Origin: a virus
Taxonomy: Duplodnaviria > Heunggongvirae > Uroviricota > Caudoviricetes
Length of the DNA: 10,935 nt
Strand: one strand, 5' to 3'
IMG/VR virus record: IMGVR_UViG_2534681940_000021
Shown here: piece by piece, positions 1 through 3,000 of the stretch
How the letters are laid out: the number at the start of each line of letters is the position of its first letter
How positions within the stretch are numbered: position 1 is the stretch's first letter
Position numbers: made by a program

Positions 1-3000
1 GTTACCGATTCCAATTCAAGTTCGTTCAGACGATGACGAAGTGTGTGTGCTGCAATCTCCTGGATTGAAGGAGGTAAATCTTTAAATTCCATCGTCAACC
101 TCATTAGTCGGAGTTTCTTGCTAACCAGCGACGCGCGCCAGCTTCAGTTTTAAACGTTTTGCTTCTGGTATACGTCATCGCGGTAAACGTGCCGTCCAGG
201 TTGGGGAATACTCCGTATACCAGAGATTCGTTGTTGCCAAGATTGAGCGTATCCATGTTGACCTCATTTCCCCTTAACGCCGGGTAGCGGAACTGTTTGC
301 TGAGAACACCGTGCGGTGTCTTGATGGGTGGTAATTTAGTTTTCTCATGAATGTTGGTCAAGTATTTTTAATGAGAAAACTCAATATTTAATGCAAAATA
401 AAGCCAATACATTGAAATGTAAGGCTTTAAAATTTGTGAAGGGGGTTACTGATGTTTGTTACGTTTGCGAGCTTCTAGTAGCTCGGTGAATAGGCGATTA
501 AAATTCTCAACGCGGGCACGGAGTTCGCTGATTTGTGCTTGCTGCTCTGATTTTGGAAGTGCGCGATACAATCGCAACATCTCCAACTCATCTTCCGATA
601 AGTCTAAGGCGCTGTTGAGTGCAACTGGTGGATCTGGTGTTTTATCCTCGTCACCAAACAGTATCCAAGTTGGTGAACATTGCAATACCTCAGCCAGGCG
701 ATGCAAATTTTGCCCGCGCGGGGCTGTATGGTCGCTTTCCCATAGTGAAATTGATGAGCCAGATACGCCAGCGGCTTTGCTTAAATCGTTTTGACTTAAA
801 CCAACCTGTTTGCGTCTTTCTCTAATTCGTTGACCTAAAGTTTTCTCGTTCATATTTAGATATCTTAATAACCCTTGACTTGAGATTCCTTGAGTGATTG
901 CTATTGAGAAAACTCAACTTTGGAGAGGTGATGTTTAAATCAGACGTAATTAATTTTTATGGGACGAAAGCCAAAGTAGCGAAAGCTGCTGGTGTTGATC
1001 CATCTGCTGTTTCTCAATGGGGGGAACTGGTTCCTGAAGGTCGCGCGATGCGCCTGCAAGAGGCATCCGGCGGGGAACTTCAGTACGACCCCAAAGTTTA
1101 TGACGAATATCGTAAGGCAAAGCGGGCGGGGCGGTTGAACAATGAAAATCACCCCTGAACAGGTTTGTGAGGCTCTGGATGCCTGGGTATGTCGACCAGG
1201 AATGACACAGGAGCAGGCGACGATATTAATCACGGAAGCATTCTGGGCTCTGAAAGAACGCCCGAACATCGATGTTCAACGCGTCACGTTTAATGATGGC
1301 GAGGTTGATCAACGGGCGCTGGGCGTTAACCGGGTGAAGATATTCGAACGCTGGAAAGCTATCGACACCAGGGATAAGCGGGAAAAATTCACGGCGCTGA
1401 TTCCGGCAATTATGGAGGCTATCCGAATTAGTGATTTCAGGTTGTATCGTGAGATCAGTGATGGAAAAAGCATTACGTACATGATCGCCGGATTAAACAA
1501 AGAATATGGCGATGTGGTGGAGTCCGGGCTGCTTTTTGCGGATCCAGCTGTTGTGGAACGTGAGACTGACGAGCTTATAGAAAAAGCTATTGCTTTCAAG
1601 CATGCGTATCGTCAGCAATATCAATATTACTTTGCAGATAAACAAATATCTGCCAGGGGTTCGTATGAGTATCGATGCACTACGATGGGCTAAAAAGGTG
1701 AAAACCGGCAGTTCATCCAGTAAGTCTGTATTGACCTGGCTTGCTGATATGTGCGGTGCCGATTTGTGTGCATACCCGTCTGTATCTGCACTGGCAGAAG
1801 TAACGGAACTGAACAAAAAGACTGTGCAGGACAGCTTACGACACCTGATGGAGATTGGGTTAATTGTTGATACCGGTGAGAGAAAAGGCAGAACAAAGCA
1901 AATTGTGGTGTACCGACTTATCGGTGTAGAAGAAAGTGTTGCCGAGCCTGAATACACCCAAAAACGGGTGTCTTTAAAGGTGGGTAAAATTGGTGCTGTT
2001 AATAAAAACAGTACCGAAAATGGTTATGTTTCAGCACAAAAGAGCCCCAAAAACGGAACTCTTTGTTGCATGGAAAATAACCAAAGACACCCAAATTTTC
2101 CATCAAAGACACCCAAAAACGGATCACGGAACCCAAAGGAACCCAAAGATCTAAACCCCACACATAACGCACGCGAGAGTGCTCCGACCAGTGAGCAGGA
2201 AGTTTTGTCGTTACAGGCAGCCCCCCATGTATTCCTGGATGGCCTGAGCGAACCCATCGGAAAATTCCCGATGAGCGATAGCTGGTATCCGTCACGGGAT
2301 TTTCGACGACGGGCTGCGTTGTGGGGGATGGCTTTGCCGGAGACAGAATTTACACCTGCTGAACTTACCGCATTCCGGGACTACTGGGCAGCGGAGGGGA
2401 AAGTGTTTACGCAGATTCAGTGGGAGCAGAAATTCGCCCGTCACGTAAATCACGTCAGGGCGCAGGTTAAACCAGTCAGCAAAGGGGTAAACCATGCAGC
2501 AGCACCAGGTGGCACCGCATCACGGGCAGTTCAGGAAATTCGGGCAGCACGTGAGCAGTGGGAACGTGAAAACGGATTTATCAGCGACGGAAACGGCCTG
2601 GAAGCTGTGGGAACTCATGGGGGAGGTTTATTCGAACCGCTGGACCCAGAAGAACGGGGCCGCACCTTCGAAGCTCTGGATTGCACAGATTGGCGCGATG
2701 ACTGAGCAGCAAATCCGGCAGGTCTGCCGCCAGTGCATGGACCGCTGCCGGGCGGGTGAAACATGGCCTCCGGACCTGGCTGAGTTTGTGGCGCTGATTT
2801 CGGAAAGCGGGGCCAATCCATTTGGCCTGACGGTGGATGCTGTGATGGAGGAGTATCGCCGCTGGCGTAATGAGTCCTGGCGATATAACGGAAGCGACAA
2901 ATATCCGTGGCCTCAGCCTGTGCTGTATCACATTTGCCTCGAGATGCGTTCAAAGGGGATTGAACGCCAGATGACCGAAGGGGAATTAAAACGGCTTGCA

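Follow-up and report, generated by a model that had tools for sequence, protein, structure and literature searches.

Putative operators flank the repressor gene in a probable Qin/DicA-type prophage immunity region

The window analysed here is the whole 10,935-nucleotide stretch of DNA in the viral record IMGVR_UViG_2534681940_000021 (IMG/VR). Its positions 100–1160 hold a repressor gene, a cro-like gene and the first gene of a leftward early operon, and copies of one short sequence flank the repressor gene (Table 1). The start codons of the repressor and cro genes are on opposite strands with 78 bp between them. The repressor matches the subfamily model 'transcriptional repressor DicA' (NF007257) with 238 bits (cut-off 101) over residues 1–135 of 135 and is 56% identical to DicA of Escherichia coli K-12. 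The Cro protein matches the 'DicC' model (NF007282, 167.6 bits, cut-off 130) and Pfam P22_Cro (E 1.1e-17); it is 71% identical to K-12 DicC, and the differences cluster in its first 30 residues. To the right, cro is followed on the + strand by a YdaT-like gene and then by DnaT-like O and P replication genes; to the left, the genes of E. coli relatives go on to dicB, exo, xis and int. The order of cro, the divergent repressor gene and the ydfA operon is that of dicC-dicA-ydfA...dicF-dicB in the K-12 cryptic prophage Qin, and likewise of annotated E. coli prophages. The ydfA-like gene is annotated in E. coli relatives as a 153-nt DUF1391 coding sequence, and in K-12 Qin ydfA has the equal position. 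An 85-residue open reading frame (ORF) with a TTG start (104–361) was rejected as a gene; it is a spurious extension through the leftward promoter and its putative operators, and its last 50 codons alone match DUF1391.

Table 1. Features of the immunity region, in window coordinates.
Feature	Position	Strand	Evidence or remarks
ydfA-like gene (DUF1391, 50 aa), first of the leftward early operon	104..256	-	Pfam DUF1391, E 2.4e-28, 50-aa form fully covered
Leftward promoter, PL-like, counterpart of K-12 dicBp	333..361	-	TTGACC (361-356), 17-nt spacer, TAAATT (338-333)
Left putative operator, promoter-proximal	335..348	-	one mismatch to the 13-mer; + strand TTTAGTTTTCTCAT, minus strand ATGAGAAAACTAAA
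Left putative operator, promoter-distal, ATGAGAAAACTCAA	371..384	+	exact 13-mer; conserved in relatives
Hairpin and U-run, putative repressor terminator	394..436	-	fold -12.3 kcal/mol, z = -3.3, 0/200 shuffles as stable
DicA-subfamily repressor, 135 aa	446..853	-	NCBIfam NF007257, full length
Candidate weak operator TTTAGATATCTTAA, Oa/OR3-like position	855..868	+	8/10 arm positions of TTGAG-N4-CTCAA; 12/14 self-complementary
Rightward promoter, PR-like, counterpart of K-12 dicCp	875..904	+	TTGACT (875-880), 18-nt spacer, TGCTAT (899-904)
Candidate weak operator TTGAGATTCCTTGA, Om/OR2-like position, in rightward promoter spacer	880..893	+	two mismatches to the arm pattern
Main right putative operator TTGAGAAAACTCAA, counterpart of K-12 Oc	904..917	+	exact match; conserved in relatives
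DicC-type Cro, 75 aa, first gene of the rightward early operon	931..1158	+	NCBIfam NF007282; Pfam P22_Cro

Many E. coli chromosomes match the first 1.7 kb of the window at 98.4% identity, and the region stands there in a lambdoid prophage context. In a search of 5,426 complete E. coli genomes, about 780 carry at least 80% of this 1.7-kb region, and in O157:H7 and O103:H2 strains the match covers most of the window. The isolated phages mEp460_ev081 and HannyBb are of the same immunity type (∼90% DNA identity), the match being to the 661-bp operator and repressor region.

The 13-mer TGAGAAAACTCAA occurs exactly at 372–384 and at 905–917, and a third time, inverted and with one mismatch, at 335–347. 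When up to two mismatches are allowed, these remain the 3 matches in 10.9 kb (0.28 expected; 0/200 shuffles reach 3), all of them confined to the immunity region. The 13-mer makes up the last 13 bases of the 14-mer TTGAGAAAACTCAA, which stands in the gap separating the start codons of the repressor gene (853) and the cro-like gene (931). An earlier reading of this DNA, made without database searches (hereafter the sequence-only reading), had taken the 14-mer for a perfect palindrome between the two genes. Its location is correct, but the site consists of 5-bp arms, TTGAG and CTCAA, around an asymmetric AAAA and is self-complementary at 10 of 14 positions. The same reading had the 13-mer recurring 532 bp away, upstream of the leftward small gene; the recurrence is indeed exact and stands 115 bp upstream of that gene, with an offset of 533 bp from start to start. 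It had counted one left site, correctly placed, and had missed the second one inside the leftward promoter. The distal left copy starts with ATGAG, so that its arms are 4 bp long, and 335–351 and 368–385 pair as an 18-nt inverted repeat (89%). Rfam scans of the whole window, and of 1–1300 at a lax threshold, found no RNA family in the immunity region, and the repeat is not part of a known RNA.

On the left, a consensus scan of 1–1300 listed TTGACC-17-TAAATT as the sole promoter-like site. Buttiauxella and other immunity groups (see below) share this -35/17/-10 layout, and the -35 is conserved amid variable neighbouring bases. The proximal left site occupies the spacer and has its end bases in common with the -10 hexamer; its single mismatch (CTAAA versus CTCAA) is there because these last bases overlap the -10. 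The distal left site adjoins the -35 on the upstream side, its centre 36 bp from that of the proximal site. On the right, the promoter is equivalent by position to the K-12 promoter TTGACT-17-TATCTT. It was not listed in the scan because G at 900 fails the requirement for A at the second position of the -10. The right site starts with the final base of the -10, covers the predicted cro transcription start and is placed like K-12 Oc relative to -35, -10 and ribosome-binding site; the start site of K-12 dicCp has been mapped, and Oc overlaps the -10 there (PMC3441716). The promoter-proximal sites on the left and right have the same orientation along transcription, TGAGAAAACTnAA. Directly after the repressor stop codon lies the hairpin with its U-run, the stem region of which is invariant among relatives. 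It probably terminates the repressor transcript and so sets it apart from the leftward promoter.

Conservation was footprinted on 80 IMG/VR loci, the E. coli locus L002, two loci from metagenome-assembled genomes (L003, L004) and the two phage loci, which together give 56 distinct 715-bp sequences. The measure is the mean number of sequences that deviate from the consensus per column. The scan of viral contigs yielded almost only near-identical repressors and was used for footprinting, not for wider diversity. The right site has 0.21 deviating sequences per column, the proximal left site 0.29 and the distal left site 0.79; the stretch between the two left sites has 8.95 (1.5 for the -35 hexamer inside it), and the two flanks of the right site have 4.2 and 5.1. 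Of the three sites, the right one has its 12-nt core intact in 82 of the 85 usable loci, the proximal left one in 79 and the distal left one in 70; 64 loci have all three intact. The core is present on the cro side and at at least one left-side site in 82/85 loci with this repressor type. Two Buttiauxella loci, with repressors 75–76% identical, have ATTGAGAAAACTCA at all three places (the distal left site there reads ATTGAGAAAACTCAAT), and the bases around the operators have diverged, one -35 included. The sequence-only reading had proposed a motif scan of related prophages and named absence of the motif from orthologous immunity regions as one refutation; the motif is kept, both in the 82 loci and in the Buttiauxella orthologues.

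The sites also change together with the DNA-binding part of the repressor. Thirteen genome loci and K-12 fall into five groups by their helix-turn-helix (HTH) sequence, and each group has its own operator word: TTGAGAAAACTCAA in the group of the window, TTGTTAGTyATGACTAACAA in the K-12 group, an intermediate, TTGTTGAG-like word in one Citrobacter locus, and a word of its own in each of two further groups. In each locus the group-specific word is present on both sides of the repressor gene. The longest word common to the cro side and the left side is on average 11.6 nt long when both sides come from one locus, 12.1 nt when they come from two loci of one group and 7.7 nt when they come from different groups (11 loci, five immunity groups; Mann-Whitney p = 8e-7). 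The HTH regions of repressor and Cro change together, and co-variation alone therefore cannot separate the two proteins. The L003 and L004 repressors are 96% identical; these loci carry the labels Bacillota and Veillonella parvula, and one K-12-type locus is labelled Collinsella. All three are almost certainly mis-binned enterobacterial prophage contigs.

The repressor has an N-terminal HTH (Pfam HTH_3) that resembles the N-terminal domain of P22 c2, the closest DNA-binding domain of solved structure, to which residues 1–72 align without gaps (E 2e-15). The recognition helix reads VSGSSISL, versus VSNVAISQ in P22, with Ser in place of a base-contacting Val; the corresponding region is VSGSSISLWE here and ISHVSVSQWE in K-12. 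A C-terminal region of ∼50 residues is predicted to be helical. The single-sequence model is poor (predicted local distance difference test score, pLDDT, 63) and gives this region, at low confidence, as a short helix followed by a long one. A Pfam search with the 135 residues returned HTH families and no S24 peptidase or self-cleavage domain, and a search of solved structures with the 53 C-terminal residues found no relative.

We consider it very probable that positions 100–1160 are the immunity switch of an E. coli Qin/DicA-type lambdoid prophage, with the repressor gene lying between copies of putative operators that would control both early promoters. The observations behind this assignment are the sequences of the sites, where they stand relative to promoter hexamers, how well they are conserved and how they co-vary with the DNA-binding region of the repressor. 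Judged by its sequence, the locus is of the already studied DicA/DicC (Qin) kind, and every defining feature of that kind that a sequence can reveal was found. What it holds is an ordinary but real regulatory feature; relative to the textbook copy the sequence of the sites differs, and the operator word itself is the only new element. The locus is a heteroimmune relative of K-12 Qin, with a predicted specificity other than that of the K-12 prototype. The proposal of the sequence-only reading that the repressor gene has copies of its own operator on either side, in an OL/OR-like geometry, is upheld by the DicA/DicC subfamilies, the K-12 Qin gene order and the published K-12 operators on both sides of dicA.

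The identity of the binding protein and the regulatory outcome would follow, by homology, those of K-12 DicA/DicC and P22 c2. The 135-residue repressor would bind as a dimer, through its P22 c2-like HTH, to operators of the form TTGAG-AAAA-CTCAA, in which two 5-bp half-sites, separated by a helical turn, enclose a centre of 4 bp. A sequence-dependent readout of DNA shape would be in keeping with the strict conservation of the AAAA centre. Occupancy of the right site, on the -10 and +1, would silence the gene for the DicC-type Cro together with the replication genes that follow it. The two left sites, one in the spacer and -10 and the other upstream of the -35, would clamp the leftward promoter and switch off the operon that runs from ydfA through dicB to exo-xis-int. 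Equipped with a terminator hairpin of its own, the repressor gene would sit between the two controlled promoters as cI does between lambda OL and OR, and the Cro-type protein would be expected on the same sites, turning the repressor gene off. In K-12, DicA binds a 20-nt inverted repeat, Oc, and a change of one base abolishes binding; at Oc it represses dicC and enables transcription of dicA (PMC3441716). DicA also represses dicBp, and both dicA intergenic regions are reported to hold operators, like lambda PR and PL, in an account that cites Bejar et al. 1988 (PMC10448788). Chromatin immunoprecipitation sequencing (ChIP-seq) of DicC gave sites on both sides of dicA (PMC11430063).

Several points weigh against this assignment. 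Data on binding and repression are limited to the K-12 homologue (PMC3441716, PMC10448788), and for the repressor of the window the argument is from conservation and co-variation. Even in K-12, Oc is the one site shown to be bound by DicA in vivo, and the two adjoining predicted sites were not (PMC3441716). Some prophage copies have point changes inside the operators, as the decay of prophages would lead one to expect. An A/T-rich UP element would occupy the place of the distal left site, and part of that site's conservation could reflect promoter strength. Finally, a search for the operator motif in the searchable literature returned unrelated eukaryotic matches only.

The sites might instead be used mainly or solely by the DicC-type Cro or by a host factor, and not by the 135-residue repressor. 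For K-12, it is indeed the DicC ChIP-seq that gives direct genome-wide evidence of sites flanking dicA, and the host regulator YjdC is reported to repress DicA targets when DicA is absent (PMC11430063). We nevertheless regard this explanation as improbable, given the in vivo binding of Oc by K-12 DicA and its loss on a single base change, the repression of dicBp by DicA, and the co-variation of the operator word with the repressor HTH across groups. Alternatively the repeat could be a by-product of common promoter architecture or of an old local duplication, with no role in protein binding. The two copies are alike over a longer 21-nt stretch (86% identity), and both lie in A/T-rich regions (GC 35–39%), as such an origin would have it. 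The relatives, however, conserve the 12–14-nt core and not the extra flanking similarity, and heteroimmune relatives swap all copies together. In addition, the copies are placed differently with respect to the promoters (+1, spacer/-10, upstream of -35) and so do not represent one promoter element. We give this explanation very little credence.

To the reading in which one repressor serves two promoters, a further proposal adds that repressor oligomers also hold the flanking operators together, closing a loop of ∼0.53 kb round the repressor gene for tighter repression and autoregulation, as in lambda. The sequence-only reading had put forward such looping; it has no support here. The identical high-quality sites on both sides of the gene (533–569 bp apart), a layout kept throughout the family, and a conserved C-terminal region, helical in the low-confidence model, which could mediate oligomerization, would suit a loop. 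The distance between right and left operators varies, however, from 497 to 536 bp without a preferred helical phase (Rayleigh p about 0.77, 11 independent loci, the operators of the two most distant groups picked by eye), which is absence of support and not disproof, since phase matters little for loops of ∼500 bp. The two left sites keep a constant spacing of 34–37 bp because promoter geometry dictates it. The C-terminal region is unrelated to the octamer-making C-terminal domain of lambda CI (no S24 match, no solved relative), and the layout needs no loop because two promoters that share one repressor fully explain it. We regard looping of this kind as unlikely. The more specific version, in which a short DicA-type repressor bridges right and left operators through its conserved helical C-terminal region and encloses its own gene and terminator in the ∼0.53 kb loop, appears more doubtful still. 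If true, it would be a compact counterpart of the lambda OL-OR loop built on an unrelated oligomerization domain, and the loop could explain why DicA is needed at the cro-side operator for its own transcription.

K-12 Qin is the closest known system. Both loci encode members of the DicA and DicC subfamilies from divergent repressor and cro genes, in both the repressor gene is followed by a ydfA operon with its own promoter, and both have one operator at the -10/+1 of the cro promoter and two, 34–37 bp apart, around the downstream promoter. The repressor has no cleavage domain in either. The Qin layout has itself been called lambda PR/PL-like (PMC10448788, PMC3441716). The loci differ in the operator, TTGTTAGTCATAACTAACAA (Oc) in K-12 versus TTGAGAAAACTCAA here, and in the proteins, where the differences between the repressors and between the Cro proteins are concentrated in the DNA-binding parts.

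By analogy the system would work like lambda OL/OR and P22 immC. As in lambda, two divergent early promoters under one operator family enclose the repressor gene, from which cro diverges, and the K-12 homologue has been described as a bistable switch (PMC10448788). The repressor of the window is, however, much smaller than CI and has no S24 self-cleavage/oligomerization domain, and so is not of the CI type in the strict sense. The number of sites may differ as well: lambda has three and three, and one strong right site (plus two weak candidates, at spacings of 24–25 bp) and two left sites are present here, the latter 36 bp apart and not adjacent. Lambda OL and OR are separated by about 2.3–2.4 kb; the operators of the window are ∼0.5 kb apart.

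P22 c2 dimers recognize TTAAG half-sites that are spaced by one helical turn, and leave the 4 bp at the centre uncontacted; the consensus is ATTTAAGATATCTTAAAT (PMC5175364). The HTH domain is homologous, the operator format is comparable (TTAAG-ATAT-CTTAA versus TTGAG-N4-CTCAA) and the Cro protein belongs to the P22_Cro family; the half-site TTGAG, the centre AAAA and the recognition helix differ, and P22 c2 has 216 residues including a cleavable C-terminal domain (PMC10448788), versus 135 here. The Gifsy repressors GfoR and GfhR, which have been used as an analogy for DicA (PMC10448788), are likewise short, non-cleavable lambdoid repressors. They are inactivated by antirepressors, as would be expected here, and their likeness to the repressor of the window is one of role.

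The lack of a self-cleavage domain in the repressor leads us to expect induction by an antirepressor and not by RecA-stimulated cleavage. In Qin induction the antirepressor is Rem (PMC10448788). Here, unlike in K-12 Qin, no Rem homologue is found at the expected place; the ORF at 6483–6755 was considered and is not Rem. The window does contain an isrK RNA (4310–4383) and a C4 antisense RNA (4409–4492), followed by a gene for a 182-residue ORF6N-domain (Ant-like) protein (4545–5093). The arrangement at 4310–5093 resembles a P1 immI-like antirepressor module and is a candidate for inducing a prophage whose repressor cannot be cleaved. In this the prophage differs from Gifsy, its antirepressor being a candidate only.

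Two further sites on the right, 855–868 and 880–893, may be weak operators. The sequence-only reading had taken TTGAG at 880 and 890 as a sign of multiple adjacent operators. Both copies are present, but TTGAG occurs 21 times on the + strand of the window, and the copy at 890 is not kept in relatives, which have TTGAAT or TTGCG instead. What stands in place of that claim are weak candidates. The centres of 855–868, 880–893 and 904–917 are 25 and 24 bp apart, which is reminiscent of OR3-OR2-OR1, and the two candidates overlap the rightward -35 and a -10-like hexamer of the repressor gene. Among the 56 distinct relatives 855–868 is invariant (0.0 deviating sequences per column) and 880–893 has 0.36; of the latter, relatives keep the left half TGAG, and the right half is poor. 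The K-12 counterparts Om and Oa are not bound by DicA in vivo, in the case of Om by DicA alone (PMC3441716), and for this reason the two sites may not be operators.

TTTAGATATCTTAA (855–868) matches the core TTAAGATATCTTAA of the P22 c2 operator consensus (PMC5175364) at 13 of 14 positions, and it is also present in the Citrobacter locus L007, whose main operator differs. Repressor codons 2–6 (836–849, minus strand; the gene starts ATG AAC GAG AAA ACT) contain a 9-nt operator core, GAGAAAACT, which may be coincidental or may mark a fourth site, inside the gene; the Buttiauxella orthologues do not keep it.

Some observations concern the promoters and leaders. The rightward -10 (899–904) reads TGCTAT in the window versus TACTAT in most relatives, 4 of the 56 distinct sequences deviating at position 900, and without the key A at -11 the lytic promoter may be weaker in this copy of the prophage. 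On the minus strand, a -10-like TAAGAT (867–862) lies 8 nt upstream of the repressor ATG. Such a hexamer (TAAGAT; TAGCAT or TAGAAT elsewhere), 8–9 nt before the ATG and with no Shine-Dalgarno sequence between, is found in 13 of the 15 sequences listed, across four of the five immunity groups; the comparison included the window, L003–L013 and K-12 (L001). This pattern suggests a leaderless, PRM-like repressor message. The leader of the ydfA-like gene (267–319, minus-strand transcript) is nearly invariant in relatives and recognizable across immunity groups including K-12. It holds a small hairpin, ACACCGTGCGGTGT (+ strand as written, about 304–317), and the fold of the 5' leader of the leftward operon is no better than that of shuffled sequences (z = 0.38).

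The operator word TTGAG-AAAA-CTCAA and the promoter layout are now defined for one widespread DicA-type immunity group. They can be used to predict cross-repression among prophages that share one cell, to predict which prophage copies have lost control of dicB/dicF-type cell-division inhibitors, and to design reporters; the understanding of how such switches work is unchanged.

Elsewhere in the window, the early right region carries two toxin-antitoxin modules, one at 5196–5520, consisting of a sok RNA with a Hok/Gef toxin gene, and one on the minus strand at 5623–6304, made up of a RelE-family toxin gene (5933–6304) with an HTH antitoxin-like gene (5623–5940). Further right lie a RusA gene (8142–8609) and a 224-residue ORF (8494–9168) that is Q-like by position only. 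Downstream of both, Rfam matches the small RNA STnc100 at 10100–10274 (81.8 bits), roughly where a related E. coli prophage carries tRNA genes.

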